A stretch of DNA of 64,000 bases. Source: a virus (Duplodnaviria; Caudoviricetes). A model generated the notes under the pieces. It was not told the origin of the DNA, did not search any database, and saw only the letters and a program-made list of their open reading frames with translations. Both the position numbers and the translations under genes were made by a program. The stretch lies in the IMG/VR virus record IMGVR_UViG_3300032335_000777, positions 1-64,000 of that record. The stretch is one strand, 5' to 3'. This document shows, one piece after another, positions 3,700-19,900 of the stretch; the stretch's first letter is position 1; each line of letters starts with the position of its first letter.

Positions 3700-4457
3700 A
3701 CTATCCATTGATCTCTTGCAAGATGATCACTTATGGAAGAGTGGAGTTTCTCGAGGAGTCTCTCCACTCTTTTCTTCTTCAGGATTATCCTGGAGAAAAG
3801 GAACTAGTGATCGTAAATGACTATCCTCTACAGAAGCTTGTGTTTGATCATCCAGATGTAAGAATATACAATCTTGATGAAACATTTAAAACTATTGGGG
3901 ATAAGGAAAACTATGCTACAGAACTATGTAGAGGAGAAATCATCTGTCAATGGGACGATGATGATGTTGCTACGTCTTGGCATTTAAAAAATGTAGCTGA
4001 ACAATTCACAGATGATGTTAATATCCTACACTGGGCCACTGGTGTTTATTACAATGACTCAACTATTACAAATGTTGGATGGATAGGTAACTCAGGTATT
4101 GTGTTTAGGAAGTCTGCATGGAAAGCTATTGGTGGGCATCCTGTAGAGAATGCTGGTTATGATATGACATTTGTAAATGCTCTTGCTCATTACGGTGGTA
4201 GAAAGTTTGCTGAGATGCCTAATGAAAAAGCTAGCTGGTTTTATATGTGGGGAGGAAGAGGTTATCACATGAGTGGAATGGGTACAGATACTAGCGACAG
4301 AGCTAATGTTATTGAAAGACATTCAAATCATGTTGAAAGCTTAAGAGTAAAAGGATTGATCCCTACAGGAGATGTACACTTAAATCCTCATTGGAAACTT
4401 GATTATCAAAAACAATTAGAAGAACATGTTAGTAGACTTCATAATCCCAACGTATAA
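3696..4457 (+). CDS. Glycosyltransferase family 2
   Basis: ISCKMITYGR, LLQDY, ELVIVND, WDDDD (DxD) GT-A motifs. Confidence 0.85.
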   Translation: MNYPLISCKMITYGRVEFLEESLHSFLLQDYPGEKELVIVNDYPLQKLVFDHPDVRIYNLDETFKTIGDKENYATELCRGEIICQWDDDDVATSWHLKNVAEQFTDDVNILHWATGVYYNDSTITNVGWIGNSGIVFRKSAWKAIGGHPVENAGYDMTFVNALAHYGGRKFAEMPNEKASWFYMWGGRGYHMSGMGTDTSDRANVIERHSNHVESLRVKGLIPTGDVHLNPHWKLDYQKQLEEHVSRLHNPNV

Positions 4458-4992
4458 TCGACCTGCACTATTGAAGTGCATGTTAGCTTCTCTTGTAGCA
4501 CAGAACAATCCAGATTGGGGAGCTCATGTAGTAATTGACAATCCTGATGATGAAGATAATGTAAAGCTTGTAGAAAGCTTCAATGATAGCAGAATCAGGT
4601 GGTCAAAGATGGACAAGAGATATAATGACTGGGGCCACACACCAAGAGAATATGGTAAGCAGCAGACTGAAGCAAAGTATGTAATCATGACAGGTGATGA
4701 TAACTACTACACTCCTAACTTTGTGTCAGAGATAAAACATCTATGTGATGTAGATGCTGGAATGATTTACTGGGATATGGTGCATTCGCATTACAATTAC
4801 ACATATTTTAGATGTGTTCCAGGAGATGGTCAGATTGATATGGGAGCATTTGCTACACGTACAGATCTAGCCAAAGAAATATATCTTGGTGTTGCGTATG
4901 CTGCTGATGGAATGTTTGTAGAAACTTTTAAAAAGAAGTTTCCATCACAAGGAATTCACAAGATTGATAAAGTTTTATTCGTACATAATTAA
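4426..4992 (+). CDS. Glycosyltransferase family 2
   Basis: IIPTYNR, VVID, GDDNYY, AADG motifs. Confidence 0.85.
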   Translation: MLVDFIIPTYNRPALLKCMLASLVAQNNPDWGAHVVIDNPDDEDNVKLVESFNDSRIRWSKMDKRYNDWGHTPREYGKQQTEAKYVIMTGDDNYYTPNFVSEIKHLCDVDAGMIYWDMVHSHYNYTYFRCVPGDGQIDMGAFATRTDLAKEIYLGVAYAADGMFVETFKKKFPSQGIHKIDKVLFVHN

Positions 4993-4996
4993 ATCT

Positions 4997-5560
4997 ATGG
5001 GAAAGCTTACAGAGATTGCCAATAATCAAAAAACTGATAAGGGCACAGAACATTATGAGAAGCATGGATATACAGAAGTGTACGATAAATATATTCCTGG
5101 AACAGGTGCATATAAGCTACTAGAAATAGGAATATGGCATGGTGATTCTTTGAGAATGTGGAAAGCTTACAATCCTGAGCTTGAAATACATGCAATAGAT
5201 ATAGATGATAATGTTGTCAATCATATTGAGCATCCTAATCCATATCATATTTATATTGGAGATCAAACAGATCCAATTATTCTAGATGAGATTGTAAAGA
5301 ACGGTGGACCATTTGATTTTATAATTGATGATGGAAGTCATGTTGGTCGTCACATCACATCGTCCTTCAAACTTTTGTGGGAACATGTAAAGATTGGAGG
5401 TTATTATTTCATCGAAGATCTACATGCAGGTCATGCTAATAGACCAGAGACGATTAGAATAATTACAGAATGGTTAAGTGATAAACCACACTCTATACTC
5501 CTAACAGTTAATGATAAACTTTTAATCATTGAGAAGAAATGGAAATCCCTGTCATCATAA
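4997..5560 (+). CDS. Class I SAM-dependent (sugar O-)methyltransferase
   Basis: TDK...HGY, LLEIGIWHGDS, GDQ, DFIIDDGSH, GGYYFIED; start taken at MGKL. Confidence 0.85.
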   Translation: MGKLTEIANNQKTDKGTEHYEKHGYTEVYDKYIPGTGAYKLLEIGIWHGDSLRMWKAYNPELEIHAIDIDDNVVNHIEHPNPYHIYIGDQTDPIILDEIVKNGGPFDFIIDDGSHVGRHITSSFKLLWEHVKIGGYYFIEDLHAGHANRPETIRIITEWLSDKPHSILLTVNDKLLIIEKKWKSLSS

Positions 5561-11791: not shown

Positions 11792-12207
11792 TAAGATAAA
11801 GTTAGTAAATATTTAGTTTTAGCTGCTTCACCAGACAAAGAATCTGCAAGATTTGCAATGTCATGATATGAATTTATTTCAGCATAAGATTTTAATGATG
11901 ATGCAAATGCCATTAATTCTAAAACAACAGCCTCAGCTGATGTAGTTGTGATTGGATCAATCTTCATGGAAGTAGGTCTTCTACCTGTATATCCCATTAG
12001 TTTCTCAATCACACCATCTTTAAAGTCATGAACATAATCATACAATCCACCAAGTGCTTGATGCTCTGCATAACTTGTAGTTTGCCAGTGCAACAAATGT
12101 AGTTGCTCGTGGAAGTATGTTAGCTTAGAGGCAATGGACTCTAGAGACATTGCTCCTTGTCCACTGCCTTTGCTAATCATTTCCTCTGGAAATAAGGATT
12201 TTGCCAT
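11791..12207 (-). CDS. Ferritin/Dps-like protein (DUF5856-like)
   Basis: LHLLHWQT.SYAEH.ALG.LYD......D..IE, ending KYLLTL. Confidence 0.75.
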   Translation of the reverse strand: MAKSLFPEEMISKGSGQGAMSLESIASKLTYFHEQLHLLHWQTTSYAEHQALGGLYDYVHDFKDGVIEKLMGYTGRRPTSMKIDPITTTSAEAVVLELMAFASSLKSYAEINSYHDIANLADSLSGEAAKTKYLLTLS

Positions 12208-12476
12208 TATCCTGGAGAAGTGGTGGTGGTTGTAGTAGTTGCTCTCACCGTTGTAGTGGTAGTTGTTGTGCTACTTGTGCTTGTACTTGTAGTGGTTGTG
12301 CTACTTGTACTTGTAGTGGTGGTAGTTGTAGGCGCACAGCATTCGTATGCTGGAACCTCTTTCCAATTACCAACTTTAGGCTTCTGTCTTCTTAGGATCA
12401 AGCTACCTGCTACTACACGTCCGCTACCATCGTAACGCACGTACGCTTTCAAATCTTTTCTGTTGTAAGCTCCCAT
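12207..12476 (-). CDS. Small protein with C-terminal poly-Thr/Ser tail
   Basis: AYVRYDGSGRVVAGS domain followed by ~38 aa of Thr/Ser. Confidence 0.75.
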   Translation of the reverse strand: MGAYNRKDLKAYVRYDGSGRVVAGSLILRRQKPKVGNWKEVPAYECCAPTTTTTTSTSSTTTTSTSTSSTTTTTTTVRATTTTTTTSPG

Positions 12477-13530: not shown

Positions 13531-13695
13531 TTATACAGTGGTTGTTGTTGTCGTAGTTGGAGAGGCAGTTGTGGTGGTAGTAGTGGTGGTTATATTTTTA
13601 CCCATTATACGTGTTAAATATTCAAGCTGCTTCGAGATTTGCCAAAGCAAGTTTGATTTTACACTCCAACCTATCTGTCTTGATGATATAGCCAT
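13531..13695 (-). CDS. 54-aa protein with poly-Thr tail (not in ORF track)
   Basis: MAISSRQIGWSVKSNLLWQISKQLEYLT...TTTTTTTTASPTTTTTTTV; N-terminus paralogous to 13711-14283. Confidence 0.8.
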   Translation of the reverse strand: MAISSRQIGWSVKSNLLWQISKQLEYLTRIMGKNITTTTTTTTASPTTTTTTTV

Positions 13696-13710: not shown

Positions 13711-14283
13711 TTATCCAACGTTAAATATGGAAAAGTTAACAGATGGTGATGCAGGTCTAGTTGGACTAGTTCCAGCAGCAGTTGGTAAAAGTTTCATACC
13801 AGTAGCCTGTGACCACCAATAAAACTTAATGTATTGTCCAGCATTTATTTCTATTGTATCTGTTACAGTAGCTAATGTTTGGTCATTCTGCCCACCTGTT
13901 GTAGTAAATGTGTATGCAGAATTAGGAACAATTACGTCATCTATAGTAAACCAGACAGTTACATTATAATTTGATGCTCCTCCTGTAAATGCAAGTTGAA
14001 GCTGTAAGATTAAGAAATAAACATCAGAGTTAGTAATATTTATTCTATTATCAGGACCTAATGTAAACCCATTAGTTCTTTGAGTGCTATCAAATCTAAC
14101 TTGATTTGCTACGGTTGCTCCACCATTAGTTTGTTGAGTGGTGTCAAAGAAAGTAGCAGAATAAAGATTTCTAGGTGCTGGTATAGCACTTGTTACACTG
14201 GTAAGTTGCTCTAATTGTTTAGATACCTCCCAAAGTAAATTTTCTTCTGTACCCCAACCTATTTGTCTATTTGGAATTCCCAT
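13711..14283 (-). CDS. Probable virion decoration protein, C1q/BclA-CTD-like beta domain
   Basis: RQIGW...NLLW..SKQLE anchor followed by beta-strand-rich jelly-roll-like region. Confidence 0.55.
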   Translation of the reverse strand: MGIPNRQIGWGTEENLLWEVSKQLEQLTSVTSAIPAPRNLYSATFFDTTQQTNGGATVANQVRFDSTQRTNGFTLGPDNRINITNSDVYFLILQLQLAFTGGASNYNVTVWFTIDDVIVPNSAYTFTTTGGQNDQTLATVTDTIEINAGQYIKFYWWSQATGMKLLPTAAGTSPTRPASPSVNFSIFNVG

Positions 14284-14318
14284 GAGTTTTTAATTTAATT
14301 GTTAAAGATAATTCAAAA

Positions 14319-14447
14319 TTATCTTCCTTGTCCCCTGTACTTACTAACCTTTTTACCCTTTGGTGTGTTCATGTTTCTAGCCTTTCCCACTCTCCTTTTT
14401 CCAAAAGAAATCTTTCTTGATTCAGCTGCAACCTTTGCCTTAGCCAT
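14319..14447 (-). CDS. 42-aa basic peptide ending YRGQGR (not in ORF track)
   Basis: MAKAKVAAESRKISFGKRR...KYRGQGR; common small phage peptide type. Confidence 0.7.
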   Translation of the reverse strand: MAKAKVAAESRKISFGKRRVGKARNMNTPKGKKVSKYRGQGR

Positions 14448-14491
14448 AACTTATTCATTTTCAATAGTGTGAATTTATAAATAATTATTTA

Positions 14492-14743
14492 TTATTCATC
14501 AACACTATTATTTTTTGTTTTATTAATCCATTTATCTACAGAAGCTATGCCAAATGATCCTAGCACAATCACCATGAATCCATCAAATATGAATTCATGT
14601 ATAGGCATTTCTTTTCCTAATACACCTGTTACAACATCTGTAATTAGTGTAGCGATCATCATTATGAAAGCAATGAACCCCACTAAGGACTTTTCATTGA
14701 TGCTATTCTGATCGTTGAATAAATCTTTGATGAACTGTTTCAT
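14492..14743 (-). CDS. Putative holin (2 TM)
   Basis: Two hydrophobic helices, ATGA overlap with endolysin. Confidence 0.6.
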   Translation of the reverse strand: MKQFIKDLFNDQNSINEKSLVGFIAFIMMIATLITDVVTGVLGKEMPIHEFIFDGFMVIVLGSFGIASVDKWINKTKNNSVDE

Positions 14744-15333
14744 ACTAGTAGGCTATGATATTGTTTGAAATGTTTTAATCTATCTGCTAAACCAATTGTA
14801 CCACCATTCACACACTTAGTTACAGCTGTAACTGTAGCGTCAGTAGCATCTACACATTTGCCTAGGCAGTTTTTGTGGAAGAACCAAGCTGCTGATAGAA
14901 GTGGATACTTAGTAGCCACAAGATCTGGGTTAGCTATAATGTCATCTTCAACTACAGCATCAAATAATTTGTAGTTGCTCTTACCTGTCAATTGGATGTA
15001 ACCTCTTCCACGAAATCTAAAGCCTTCACCAGAAGCCTCATCACCATTACCCATTCTACTTCCGTAAACTAGGTTAGCAATTTTCTCTGGTTTTCTTTCA
15101 TATTCCTTAGCCTTAGCTTCTGTAGGAAAGTATTTTTTGAAAATTGTCAATAGACCTTTAGCTCCATAGTTCAAGTTCTCAGTGACAGCTTTAAAGTTTG
15201 CAGACTCATGTCCCACTTGGGCCAAGAAATGAGCAAGCTTAACAGGCGTGTCAATTCCAAATTTAGAGATGGTGTCAGGCAGCTGTGCTATTACAGCATC
15301 AGGAACATGCCCTTTTAGTTTTTCAATATTCAT
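14740..15333 (-). CDS. Endolysin, glycoside hydrolase family 19
   Basis: AHFLAQVGHES, ENLNY, FRGRGYIQLTG, SAAWFF, VNGG..GL.DR; start taken at MNIEKL. Confidence 0.92.
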   Translation of the reverse strand: MNIEKLKGHVPDAVIAQLPDTISKFGIDTPVKLAHFLAQVGHESANFKAVTENLNYGAKGLLTIFKKYFPTEAKAKEYERKPEKIANLVYGSRMGNGDEASGEGFRFRGRGYIQLTGKSNYKLFDAVVEDDIIANPDLVATKYPLLSAAWFFHKNCLGKCVDATDATVTAVTKCVNGGTIGLADRLKHFKQYHSLLV

Positions 15334-15343
15334 TGTTTTAATT

Positions 15344-16459
15344 TTAAGCTTTGTCTTTTTTATCGTCTGATGTTGCATACTTAATACCCATAATGGTACC
15401 AACTATAGAGAAGGCATTAGTTAACAACACTGAAAACATGTTACTCCATGTTGAGCCAATAATTTGCGTGTCCTTGTTTGAGAGAATAGCAAATGAGTAC
15501 ATTATAGTCGTGATAAATCCAACACTCATGATAACGAACAATGCAGATTTAACAATCGTTTTAATCAACTCATTCTGGCTTTTTTTGATAGTTGCATCTA
15601 AATCATTCAAAGCTGCATCTTTCTCCATCTCTATTGCCACCCTAAGTTTGTTTGAGTTATCTAACTCTGCTTGCAAGCTTTTAGATAGTTCTCCAATTTT
15701 GTTTTTACTATCTACAGTGTCAGTAATGTCATTAGCAATTTTCATCACCTTTTTACAAGTTCCATCATTGCTCAGTATGGGATTGTAAGTTGCCTTCAAA
15801 TAAATAGGAGTGCCATCTACCTTCCTTCTTTCATACTCTCCTTCAAAATACTTGCCACTACTTAATTTTTTCCAAAACTCCTTGTATTCTTCTGATTTCA
15901 AATACTCGTGACTAACAAAAATGCTGTGGTGCTTGCCAATAATTTTACTCTCATCTTTTTCATCAAAGCCCATTGCCTTTAGAAATATTGAGTTTGCACC
16001 TAGTATATATCCATCGCAATCAAAATAAATAATGGCATTACTTTTACTGACTGCGTTAATCTCATTCTTTGCTATTACAGTTGCACTTACATCACTAGCA
16101 ATCTTCATTATCTTAGTCACCTCACCATCCTCATTCATTATTGGGTTGTAGGTAGCCTGTAAGTAGATTATGCTTTCGTCTGCTTTGATTCTTTCAAATT
16201 CTCCTTCGAAAAACTTTCCTGCTCTTAATTTTTTCCAAAACTCTTTATACTCATCTGAACTTGCGTACTCAGGAGAAACAAAAATACTATGATGTTGACC
16301 AATGATTTTTTCATGATCATCTTCTTTGTAGCCCATTGCTTTCAAGAAGATATTATTCACTCCAAGAATTAAACCATTTAGATCGAAGTAAATAATCGCA
16401 TTGCTACGATTAATCGCTTCCATTCTACTTACTAGCTCTTCTTTGGATAGATTTTTCAT
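15344..16459 (-). CDS. Tandem PAS-domain protein with coiled coil and two C-terminal TM helices
   Basis: Two ~120-aa PAS/PAC repeats (AIIYFD.G.I..N..FL..MG...IIG.HHSIFV...FW..L..G..F.GE..R.....YL.ATYNPI) of the MCP/BdlA type; no signalling output domain. Confidence 0.85.
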   Translation of the reverse strand: MKNLSKEELVSRMEAINRSNAIIYFDLNGLILGVNNIFLKAMGYKEDDHEKIIGQHHSIFVSPEYASSDEYKEFWKKLRAGKFFEGEFERIKADESIIYLQATYNPIMNEDGEVTKIMKIASDVSATVIAKNEINAVSKSNAIIYFDCDGYILGANSIFLKAMGFDEKDESKIIGKHHSIFVSHEYLKSEEYKEFWKKLSSGKYFEGEYERRKVDGTPIYLKATYNPILSNDGTCKKVMKIANDITDTVDSKNKIGELSKSLQAELDNSNKLRVAIEMEKDAALNDLDATIKKSQNELIKTIVKSALFVIMSVGFITTIMYSFAILSNKDTQIIGSTWSNMFSVLLTNAFSIVGTIMGIKYATSDDKKDKA

Positions 16460-16469
16460 TACTTACTTA

Positions 16470-16790
16470 CTAATTGACATTAGACAATAAGCCAGATACA
16501 TATTGCAGCACTGCTGCTATAGCTACCACTATTCCAATTGTCCAAGTGATTCTTCTTCTAAATTCTTCTTGCTTCTCTATTTTTTTCTCCATCAAAGTGA
16601 TCTTCTCTTCTAGCACTTCAATCTTATCCACAAATCCACCAGACTTTGTTAGGGGATTGCCTAGAATTGCATCCACAACTTGCGTAAGTTTCCCATCAAT
16701 AGAAGACATTTTTTCTTCTAAATCATATAGACGCTGATCCATACTTTTTAATTCGTTGTTAATTTGCTGTTGATACGACTCAGTTGCCAT
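16470..16790 (-). CDS. Coiled-coil protein with C-terminal TM helix (lysis-cassette accessory)
   Basis: Heptad-rich N-terminus, single TM helix; start taken at MATESY. Confidence 0.6.
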   Translation of the reverse strand: MATESYQQQINNELKSMDQRLYDLEEKMSSIDGKLTQVVDAILGNPLTKSGGFVDKIEVLEEKITLMEKKIEKQEEFRRRITWTIGIVVAIAAVLQYVSGLLSNVN

Positions 16791-16823
16791 ATTAGATTCA
16801 TTTAAAATGGTTTGAAACAACAA

Positions 16824-16847
16824 AGCACACCCCTTGAGAGGTGTGCT
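16824..16847 (-). terminator. Terminator-like hairpin in leader of lysis cassette
   Basis: AGCACACC-N8-GGTGTGCT followed on minus strand by TTGTTGTTT. Confidence 0.5.
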
Positions 16848-16976
16848 GTGGAGCTTTTAGTTGGATGGGTTATTCAATTCTGGCGAATGCTAGTAAATTT
16901 AGCAAGTGATTGTATAACTACCAAAAATTCATACATTTAATTCGTAAATCCGTCAACTACGTAATAAAATTCAAAA

Positions 16977-19900
16977 ATGCCTAACAGCTACACCTACTTC
17001 AAACTACAAGTAAAAGAATGGTTTATTGACAACATTCCTACAAGTTTACGCATATTGGATGTGGGTCCTGGAAATGGAACTTACTCAGAGCTCATAAGAA
17101 ACTTAGGATACAGAATCGATGCTGTTGAGATATGGGCTCCTTATGTAGAACAGTTTAACTTACGACAGAAATATGACAATGTTTATGTGGGAGACATTTT
17201 AGAATTTGATGTTGAACCGTATGACTTTATTATTCTGGGAGATGTATTAGAGCACATCCACACAGATCAAGCCAAAGAGCTTCTTGAAAAGTTTAGCATC
17301 ATGAATAAGAAATTCATGGTTGCAGTGCCATACATGATGCCTCAAGATGGAGATGAGTATGGGAATACATACGAGACACATCATCAAGAAGATCTTACAC
17401 CAGATGTAATGCTAGAGAGGTATCCAAACTTGGAAAAGCTATATGACAATCAGTGGTATGGTTACTACGTAAATAAAAACAATGTTTGGGACAAGGCTTA
17501 CGTTCTGTATGCTACAGACAGCTATAAAGAAACTGTGCAAGCCTGTGTAGATTCTATTAGAGCATTTAGCAATTTGAATGTCATTGTCTACATGATGAAT
17601 TCAAATGCAAAGATTGATGGGGCTCTAACTTTACGATGGGATTGTAACATAAAAGAACTGGGTCAACAAAAATACATTGATAGATCTAGCTCAGATATTT
17701 ACAACATCCTTATACAGCGTCCACTAATTGTAAAGGATGCTTTGAAATATTCCAATGTTGTAGCTTATGTAGATAGTGATAGTGTTGCCACTAGATATGT
17801 TGATAATATATTTGACTATTTCCCAATCAAATCAACATATCCATACTTCACAGAAGGGATATACGATTGGATGATTATAAATGGAAGAGGTGCTACAGAG
17901 AGTAGAGAAGATCTTTCCACAACACTAGAGCATCCAGCATGTGAACTGTTTGGTGTAAATCAATACATTAGAAAAACTTACAGACAGACAGGATACTTTG
18001 TAGCTGGTAAATGGTGTCTTGAATTTTTAGATGAGTGGACTTGGATGTGTAATCATCCTAAAATTTTAAAAAATCCTCAATGGTATGCACCATATCATGA
18101 AGAAACTATAGCCAATGTACTGTTGTGGAAATGGAAAGCCTTCAAAGGACTTCCATACATGTACATCAATGGTTCTTTAGATGTAATAAACAACATTACA
18201 TTCGTTGGGACAAAGCAACATGTCAAACACTTTGTTGCTACACCTGCACATGAGGACCAATTATTCTTTTATCATGGGGAGAAGGATGCTAATGTAATGC
18301 GTCAAATGATACATTTTCAGAAGAAGCGTCCTAGAGTTTTGTTTGTAGCTCCTCACTTATCTACAGGAGGGATGCCTGCTTTCTTGTTGAGAAGAATTCA
18401 AGCTTTGCAAGCACATACAAACATAGACATCTATGTTGTAGAATATGCCAATCACAGCAATGACTACGTTGTTCAGAAAAATCAGATAAAGCAACTAGTG
18501 AAACACTTCTGGACGTTAGATGAGAACAAGATGGAGTTGATAGACATCATTAAGAATAACAGAATTGATGTTGTCCATGTAGAAGAAATGGTGGAGGATG
18601 GTTGGAACAACTGGCCAGAAGAACTAAGAGAATCTTTATATGCAGAGGATAGAAGTTGGAGAATGGTTGAGACATGTCACAACATCATATTCAAGCCAGA
18701 CATTGAAAAAAGATTTCATCCAGATGCTTATGCATTTTGTACCACTCATCACCTCAAGACATTTAAGAACATGCCTTCTACAAAGAAGGTGATTGAGTTT
18801 CCAATAGAGAAAAGAGAAAGTGAATCTGTTGATTTAGGAGAAGGTAAGCATGTACTGAACGTGGGACTATGGACTCCTGGTAAAAATCAAAAGGAGGCAG
18901 TGGAGCTAGCCAAACAAATGCCAGATGTAAACTTCCACTTTGTAGGAAATCAAGCTGGAAACTTCCAGGACTATTGGGAACCTATAATGAAAGATGTTCC
19001 TACAAATGTACACGTGTGGGGAGAAAGAAATGATGTAGGTGCGTTCATGCAAGCAGCTGACTTGTTCTTATTCAACAGCACATTTGAATGCAACCCATTA
19101 GTTATTAGAGAAGCTATAGGTTATGGACTTCCCATCATAGCTCGTAACCTCCCTCAGTATGGAGACATGTTCACTCCCTACATCACTGATTTAGATGTTT
19201 CTAGGCTAAAGCAACAGGTGTATGAGCAATTGGAAAATCCAAAGACATATACCATTCCCGAAAATCAAGAGTTTGAATTTGCCATTGCACATGTAGAACT
19301 ATACAAAGAAGCGTGTGAACAACCTACTCGTTCTAGTGAGGACATTTCAATTTCCCATTATTTCATCAATGAACCATTTCTTGAAATTAAAGGAAGATCA
19401 AAAAGTAAATTCACTATAAAGTACTATGATGAAGAAGGTGTTTGTCATTTCAACAGTGTAATAGGTGTACAAAACTGGGTGAGGCTCAACAGAAGATGGT
19501 ACACTAAATGGAACATTAAGATATGGAAAGACAATGATTTGTATTACAACTACACACTAGACTACACGGGAAAGCGTGTGTACATAGCTTTTGATAGTAA
19601 GTCTTTAGGAGATACAATAGCTTGGATGCCGTACGTACTTGAGTTCAAGAAGAAACACAACTGCGATGTTGTTGTGAGTACATTCAAAAACTTTTTATTC
19701 AAAGATGTCTATCCAGAGATTGAGTTTGTAGAACCAGGATCAGGTGTAGGTGACATACTTGGAATGTACACCGTAGGATGGTTTTACAATCCTGATAAAG
19801 AACCAGCTTTATGTAATACCATACCACTTCAAAAAGCTGCTACAAACATATTAGGTCTTGACTATCAAGAGATTAAACCAAGAATTGACTTTAAGCCTGG

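Follow-up and report, generated by a model that had tools for sequence, protein, structure and literature searches.

The window considered here is a stretch of 64,000 nucleotides, the first 64 kb of a 109,983-bp virus record in IMG/VR (IMGVR_UViG_3300032335_000777; Duplodnaviria, Caudoviricetes) whose completeness CheckV puts at 95%. Its GC content is about 36%, and the DNA of its endolysin region is 66-71% identical to that of Flavobacterium and Cellulophaga phages; the host is probably a diderm member of the Bacteroidota. On the minus strand lies a lysis cassette, in which the gene for an XhlA-like protein with a coiled coil and one transmembrane (TM) segment is followed by the gene for a 371-residue protein (15344..16459, stop codon included) composed of two PAS domains, a long helix, and two TM segments. 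Next come a GH19 endolysin gene and a gene for an 83-residue protein with two TM segments. The spacers within the cassette are about 10 nt long, which is why we read the four genes as one operon, and the endolysin stop codon overlaps the start of the 83-residue gene in an ATGA. An initial annotation of this DNA had described the same gene order and the PAS-PAS-coiled coil-TM-TM layout, and all four genes are indeed found where it placed them. It took the 371-residue protein for a holin or antiholin gated by redox, oxygen or energy state. Our analysis leads to a different emphasis, and we somewhat favor the view that this protein is an accessory, signal-coupled modulator of lysis timing.

The protein opens with PAS domain 1 (residues ~10-125; 16085..16432, minus strand like all features of the cassette), which is recognized by the Pfam families PAS_3, PAS and PAS_9, and continues with PAS domain 2 (residues ~131-247; 15719..16069), an internal repeat of the first. 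PAS_3 scores 73.9 bits (cut-off 25.6; E 1.3e-20) and PAS 68.8 bits (E 5e-19), each matching over two stretches. Behind the sensor pair stand a cytoplasmic stalk (residues 248-296; 15572..15718), TM1 (residues ~297-326; 15482..15571), and an invariant block made up of the end of the periplasmic loop, TM2 and the juxtamembrane KYAT (residues 330-363; 15371..15472). By hydropathy, the two hydrophobic segments fall at residues ~297-327 and ~341-359, and are followed by the tail KYATSDDKKDKA. The initial annotation had called for TM prediction and structure modelling, and these return two PAS folds, a long helix and a two-helix hairpin. In the AlphaFold2 model, built on 33 homologues and with a mean predicted local distance difference test (pLDDT) of 83, both PAS domains are five-stranded folds with a pLDDT above 90. 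They lead into one unbroken helix of about 80 residues (246-326), in which the stalk runs straight into TM1, and a 5-residue loop then connects this to a second helix (332-367). Because there is no signal peptide and lysines precede TM1, the topology is predicted to be N-in/C-in. The likeness to a class II holin that had been proposed thus holds in part: two TM segments, a predicted N-in/C-in orientation and a charged C-terminus agree with it, whereas a length of 371 residues, about 295 of them cytoplasmic, does not. As had also been noted, the two TM helices stand in place of a signaling output, and only PAS families are significant in Pfam, with no kinase, methyl-accepting chemotaxis protein (MCP), GGDEF or other output domain. 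The label “methyl-accepting chemotaxis protein” that the Joint Genome Institute (JGI) gives to many homologues is rejected for the same reason, as the MCP signaling domain is absent. Homologues exist in a two-PAS form of about 370 residues and a one-PAS form of about 250, and the ESM Atlas gives a single unnamed viral cluster (score 0.78).

The most conserved part of this protein is its membrane hairpin. A scan of IMG/VR yielded 75 loci with PAS-hairpin homologues, and the MAG (metagenome-assembled genome) and DNA matches of this family indicate a freshwater origin. Throughout the PAS-type loci, the 34 residues DTQIIGSTWSNMFSVLLTNAFSIVGTIMGIKYAT form one and the same protein sequence, encoded by 49 distinct DNA versions (including the copy in L075, a locus described below) that differ, among other things, in which of the two serine codon families they use. 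When 14 distinct two-PAS genes are compared segment by segment, amino acid differences average 25-28% for the PAS domains, 28% for the stalk and 8.6% for TM1, and the loop and TM2 show 0.0%; the proportion of synonymous differences (pS) is about 0.6 in every segment. We use amino acid difference beside pS, since the Nei-Gojobori ratio of nonsynonymous to synonymous differences (pN/pS) of 0.07 for the loop and TM2 is inflated by AGY/TCN serine switches. Across the wider family TM2 is conserved on every helix face (conservation moment 0.04), and a place within a protein assembly is more probable for it than exposure to lipid. It contains Thr-Asn at mid-membrane, Ser and Gly at several positions, and a GxxxG motif. 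The stripe of polar and small residues along this helix is weakly non-random (moment 0.31 versus 0.18, a value reached by 9.5% of shuffles), and the idea of a pore is not rested on it.

A natural empty site shows that the gene can be missing from an otherwise intact cassette. The locus L163, from a 109,827-bp contig of a nearly identical phage, has an XhlA-like protein, an endolysin and an 83-residue protein that are respectively 97%, 98% and 95% identical to those of the window, without the PAS gene. In blastn alignments at about 94% identity, window positions 16948-16471 correspond to 3916-4393 of L163, and 15351-14512 correspond to 4393-5232. The alignments, their junctions and the open reading frames (ORFs) of L163 thus delimit a 1,119-bp presence/absence segment (15352..16470), which consists of the PAS-hairpin gene and its spacer. 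Eighty loci with relatives of the 83-residue gene were compared. The hairpin gene is present in only five of these. A GH19 or M15 endolysin shares the locus with the relative of the 83-residue gene in 53, of which 48 have no PAS gene. The position of the sensor gene also varies: in the same-backbone relatives L165, L166, L187 and L188 it is placed after the 83-residue gene, and in L162 a one-PAS form is paired with an M15 endolysin. Judged by these genome comparisons, the 371-residue gene is an optional accessory of the late lysis operon and, because it is optional (the L163 indel, and the 75 of 80 loci with no hairpin gene), it would not be the phage's hole-former. An essential holin was considered and is rejected on the same two grounds, the clean 1,119-bp indel and the five loci out of 80. 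As expected of an antiholin or timing regulator, the gene lies among lysis genes and appears from the genomes to be dispensable.

The same comparison brings out a second difference between the two phages. In L163, the 83-residue gene is followed by two further genes (L163:5233-5850, compare window 14471-14511) that encode a 96-residue i-spanin-like protein with an N-terminal TM segment and a coiled coil, and an overlapping 114-residue o-spanin-like lipoprotein with an LLGC lipobox. Neither gene of this spanin-like pair is found in the window or anywhere else in the 110-kb genome. The pair occurs in none of the six PAS-gene cassettes of this backbone and in at least four PAS-less relatives, a small and non-independent sample.

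Linkage of the PAS-hairpin gene to endolysins extends well beyond this backbone. Neighboring ORFs were called and clustered, the clusters were named through Pfam, and neighbor counts were made over 73 loci. An endolysin, either GH19 or Peptidase_M15_3, lies within 2.5 kb in 65 of the 73, and in 37 of the 38 loci that have full flanks (at least 2.5 kb on either side of the PAS-hairpin gene); the two genes are immediate neighbors in 31 loci. These are two unrelated enzyme types, and the gene orders are shuffled (sensor-lysin, small TM-sensor-lysin, lysin-small TM-sensor, and others), with flanking genes that vary by locus. The initial annotation would have given up its proposal had homologues turned out not to be linked to endolysins, and on this point it is upheld. 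The small two-TM family of the 83-residue gene is found in 54 of the 73 loci, and a Phage_holin_4_1 gene in 20.

The hairpin also occurs without PAS domains. A profile made from the last 92 residues of the protein was searched against 1.84 billion representative proteins and matched 107, of which 77 at E<=1e-10. The hairpin is at or near the C-terminus in all of these but one, a 984-residue protein with weak internal matches. Some matches are short hairpin-only fragments, and many of the short matches or those with another N-terminus resemble fragments or chimeric gene calls, which we do not count as stand-alone holin-like genes. Most well-formed matches are proteins of 130-230 residues in which a small, conserved cap at the N-terminus (..LEGNILKLID..) is followed by a long helix and then by the hairpin; in the AlphaFold2 model of this cap form, the helix is 148 residues long (pLDDT 89). 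One further match carries a GAF domain at its front end and another a different type of PAS. It had been suggested that the C-terminal ~90 residues might exist alone as a holin-like gene; the tail does exist without PAS domains, but almost always with a long cytoplasmic stalk. Interchangeable cytoplasmic front ends on one hairpin are, in these sequences, the pattern of an output domain. Neither Pfam nor PHROGs contains a family for the hairpin, and nothing can be built on its faint matches to phrog_1544 (E 0.0014-0.008) and ExbD (E 0.1). A survey of 185,579 species genomes gave only five hairpin matches, every one on a contig from a MAG, and the bins belong to five different lineages; from these searches the hairpin family is considered phage-only.

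At least 390 IMG/VR loci match the cap-form profile, which also catches other hairpin proteins, and most of those listed are of a kinase-receiver type. Counts were made on the best 80 of them, from jumbo or large phages whose contigs reach 304 kb. Of the 80 loci, 74 have the cap-form gene directly after a receiver gene (Pfam Response_reg), 66 contain a TM-PAS histidine kinase, and 49 have a PG_binding_1-GH19 endolysin within 4 kb; this endolysin is immediately downstream in 20, and others are divergent from the kinase. In L075 (4284-7551) and in L082-L161, a TM-(GAF)-PAS histidine kinase, a stand-alone receiver and a cap-stalk-hairpin protein form a fixed three-gene unit. The kinase of L075 contains a PAS of the window's type (GxHHSxFV; 37% identical); in a motif count over 74 kinases, this type appears in only 11 and an MmoS-like first PAS in 39. 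This two-component layout is absent from the window, whose genome has no receiver gene or receiver domain. In the kinase-receiver loci, the gene after the hairpin gene often encodes a 174-residue membrane protein (cluster d10, for example L152:5701-6225). The protein P0144 joins the N-terminal half of this membrane protein to a hairpin, either as a real fusion or as a chimeric gene call.

What the PAS domains might sense can be approached from their closest solved relatives. By sequence these are MmoS (3ewk), NifL (2gj3) and Aer (8dik), at E-values from 1.3e-9 to 2e-3, the best Protein Data Bank (PDB) match of PAS2 being MmoS at E 1.3e-9. By fold, Foldseek also places 3ewk first (E 2e-16), followed by NifL, DosP, LOV-HK and FixL. 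In Aer and MmoS, the isoalloxazine ring is contacted by a His (H53 and H132, respectively), an Asn (N85 and N164) and an Arg (R115 and R195) (PMC9668731). Mapped onto the window's PAS domains through phmmer alignments, the His is retained as H178 in PAS2 and H56 in PAS1. The Asn is replaced by R211 (R90 in PAS1) and the Arg by A242 (A121 in PAS1), both invariant in 33 homologues; NifL, like Aer and MmoS, has Asn at the mapped position. A flavin-type sensor is rejected for this PAS type, as two of the three contacts checked are replaced by an invariant Arg and an invariant Ala. Gating by redox, oxygen or energy state, as the initial annotation proposed, is thereby weakened, even though the nearest solved PAS domains are flavin sensors. 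One may speculate that the invariant Arg and two invariant His residues would suit an anionic ligand. The kinase-linked relatives are another matter: in the L075 kinase, the first PAS domain has all five pocket residues in place (T, G, H, N and R), and this kinase matches MmoS over both PAS domains (E 4e-29). By this comparison, such relatives probably sense redox through flavin adenine dinucleotide (FAD).

The other genes of the cassette provide the context in which such a sensor would act. The endolysin (14740..15333; 197 residues from its ATG) matches Pfam GH19 (PF00182; 30.1 bits, cut-off 25.5) and the endolysin family phrog_181 (E 1.3e-63). Hydropathy detects no TM segment, signal-anchor-release (SAR) segment or hydrophobic N-terminus in it. 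The 83-residue protein (14492..14743) has two TM segments by hydropathy and a charged C-terminus. It matches no Pfam or PHROG family, and belongs to an unnamed family of at least 2,648 proteins; from its position and topology, it is the likeliest canonical holin of the cassette. After many relatives of its gene there are tandem endolysins, GH19 and then Peptidase M15 (L205-L207, L218-L226, L232-L233 and L237-L238). The XhlA-like protein (16470..16790; 106 residues from an ATG, or 117 from a TTG at 16823) has a coiled coil and a single C-terminal TM segment at residues 91-116. It matches phrog_937 “hemolysin” weakly (E 1.6e-7), and the Pfam search of the window's proteins, which reached up to E 0.1, returned no XhlA family for it.

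Just upstream, in the leader of the cassette, a terminator-like stem-loop at 16824..16847 (minus strand) has 10 pairs followed by TTGTTGTTT. It is the sole terminator-like site in 14200-17100, and no gene lies upstream of it on the minus strand. By analogy with the tR' site of lambda, it could be an attenuator or antitermination site of the late lysis operon. On the other side of the cassette, small proteins with long poly-Thr/Ser tails (12207-12476, 13531-13695 and 13711-14283) flank a glycosyltransferase-like gene (phrog_4417). Two of these proteins, of 54 and 190 residues, have a common N-terminal segment, RQIGW..NLLW..SKQLE.

How might these elements work together? The view that the 371-residue protein modulates lysis timing is built on its architecture, its optional status, its linkage to endolysins, the modular front ends of its family and the extreme conservation of its hairpin, all of which are observed; every functional step from there on is one that we infer. 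The protein is presumed to be a parallel dimer, along whose stalk a change in the sensor would travel. The stalk signal would alter the packing of the hairpin in the inner membrane. This could shift the time at which a separate holin releases the soluble GH19 endolysin, this holin being most likely the 83-residue protein, perhaps helped by the XhlA-like protein. What the hairpin would do to the holin can be pictured in two ways. It is possible, if still doubtful, that hairpins assemble with one another into a small leak with a polar lining, through which the membrane potential would drop and the holin would be triggered early; such a small pore alone could not release the endolysin, since this enzyme is soluble. 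Alternatively, and on rather thin odds, the hairpin would act like an antiholin by binding the holin and delaying lysis, a route favored by the precedents of T4 RI and ICP1. We give the leak a slight preference, as no face of TM2 varies with the holin-like genes nearby, be they of the 83-residue family, Phage_holin_4_1 or others. Taking the family as a whole, the hairpin may well be a new phage-only signaling output domain that acts in the membrane to set the time of lysis and is driven either by fused PAS or GAF domains or by a kinase and receiver of the phage's own, although our confidence in this generalization falls somewhat short of even.

Several points weigh against a role in lysis timing. 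The holin role of the 83-residue protein is itself a matter of position and topology, and its family is nameless. The canonical flavin contacts are missing from the window's PAS domains, so that their similarity to flavin sensors does not identify a signal. In about 31 of the 80 kinase-receiver-hairpin loci, there is no endolysin within 4 kb. Unrelated accessory genes are known to insert around lysis genes, and adjacency to endolysins could in part reflect such a hot spot. The loci share ancestry and are not independent samples.

The same evidence has to be set against other explanations. Closest to the initial annotation is a sensor-gated holin, in which hairpin oligomers would form the holes that release the soluble endolysin and the PAS domains would set the time. 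We regard this as improbable. The predicted N-in/C-in topology with two TM segments and a short charged tail is indeed that of class II holins, the gene adjoins the endolysin, the window's genome contains no Phage_holin_4_1 gene, and in L001-L004 no other clear TM protein lies within 1.8 kb of the PAS-hairpin gene. Against a hole-former, however, the gene is absent from the cassette of L163 and from 75 of the 80 cassettes of the 83-residue gene, where the locus has no hairpin gene at all, and it coexists with the small two-TM family in 54 of the 73 loci and with Phage_holin_4_1 in 20. Class II holins are small, roughly 65-95 residues, and have no large soluble domain, whereas this protein, with its 371 residues, is four to five times that size. 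Holin sequences are also very diverse as a matter of general knowledge, in contrast to an invariant TM2. For these reasons the word “holin”, in the sense of hole-former, is not retained.

Another possibility is a membrane protein unrelated to lysis and lodged in a variable region, for instance one that acts in superinfection exclusion, manipulates host respiration or transport, or binds a conserved host membrane target. The presence or absence of a single gene is typical of morons, the all-round conservation of an invariant TM2 would fit binding to a conserved host membrane target, and the 31 kinase-receiver-hairpin loci without a nearby endolysin point the same way. Against this, the window's gene lies inside the cassette rather than at its edge, and the link to endolysins spans two unrelated endolysin families, many gene orders and unrelated backbones, on contigs from ~100 kb to ~300 kb; we consider this explanation unlikely, though it deserves to be kept in mind more than the others. 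The PAS domains could also be the active part, for example by pairing with host PAS chemoreceptors or kinases, with the hairpin as a mere anchor. Such a decoy would account for PAS domains like those of cellular sensors, for the chemoreceptor labels given by JGI and for the lack of an enzymatic output domain. A passive anchor would drift, whereas here the hairpin is the most conserved part and the PAS domains vary by about 26%. Moreover, the hairpin is found without PAS, after a kinase-receiver pair or fused to GAF, which makes it the constant element, and a decoy role seems very improbable.

If the 371-residue protein does modulate lysis timing, the consequences would be substantial. Lysis timing largely decides phage fitness, and the known timers are holin accumulation and membrane potential. 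A cytoplasmic sensor of a ligand or state that is wired to a membrane effector in the lysis cassette would add a new layer of control, making lysis of the host a decision regulated by intracellular cues, something known for no studied phage. The kinase-receiver units, should the hairpin be their output domain, would be the first two-component pathway with a membrane hairpin as output instead of a transcription factor or an enzyme. In our literature search, neither PAS-coupled holins or antiholins nor control of lysis by a phage two-component system turned up in any paper. These systems are abundant in uncultured phages, with 75 PAS-type IMG/VR loci and at least 390 loci that match the hairpin-family profile. 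They could serve synthetic biology as a lysis switch that is natural, modular and signal-gated, and natural isogenic pairs with and without the gene exist, such as the window's phage and that of L163. This window contributes three new points: a precise comparison with an empty site, an argument from individual residues against a canonical flavin pocket, and the conservation of TM2 on all its faces.

Comparison with known systems places the protein between several of them. Class II holins and pinholins, of which S68 of phage 21 is an example with two TM helices in an N-in/C-in arrangement, resemble it in their predicted two-TM N-in/C-in hairpin, short loop and charged tail. In the window's protein, Gly, Ser, Thr and Asn are frequent in TM2, which also has a GxxxG motif. 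Unlike class II holins, the protein has about 300 extra cytoplasmic residues, its gene is optional, and its TM2 is invariant rather than fast-evolving. A further difference lies in the endolysin, which has no SAR segment here, so that a pinhole alone could not release it. In the Bacillus PBSX cassette XhlA-XhlB-XlyA, as in the window, a protein with a coiled coil and a C-terminal TM segment precedes the lysis genes, and the first gene of the window matches an XhlA-type PHROG. However, the match is weak (E 1.6e-7), the Pfam search returned no XhlA family, and the window's host is probably a diderm of the Bacteroidota; to our knowledge, PBSX has no sensor protein. In function, the nearest parallels are lysis-inhibition proteins. 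The T4 antiholin RI senses superinfection in the periplasm and binds the periplasmic domain of the holin T (PMC11413866; PMC8385771), and lysis inhibition is also described in ICP1, the antiholins of both phages responding to superinfection (PMC7182436 for ICP1). The likeness is one of function only, a non-essential protein in or near the lysis genes that would couple a signal to holin triggering. RI does its sensing in the periplasm, whereas the window's protein has a pair of cytoplasmic PAS domains as its sensor and a TM hairpin as its effector. In the Pfam, PHROG and PDB searches, the T4 and ICP1 lysis-inhibition proteins show no relation to it by sequence. MmoS has the same tandem PAS layout, whereas the output in the window is a membrane hairpin and not a kinase, an anti-activator or a chemoreceptor as in MmoS, NifL or Aer. 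Also related are the kinase-receiver-hairpin units of L075 and L082-L161, whose hairpins are 62-76% identical, which have the TM2 motif in common with the window, and which likewise tend to sit by a GH19 endolysin. There, sensor and effector are divided among three genes and connected by a presumed phosphorelay, whereas in the window the sensor is fused to the hairpin in one polypeptide.

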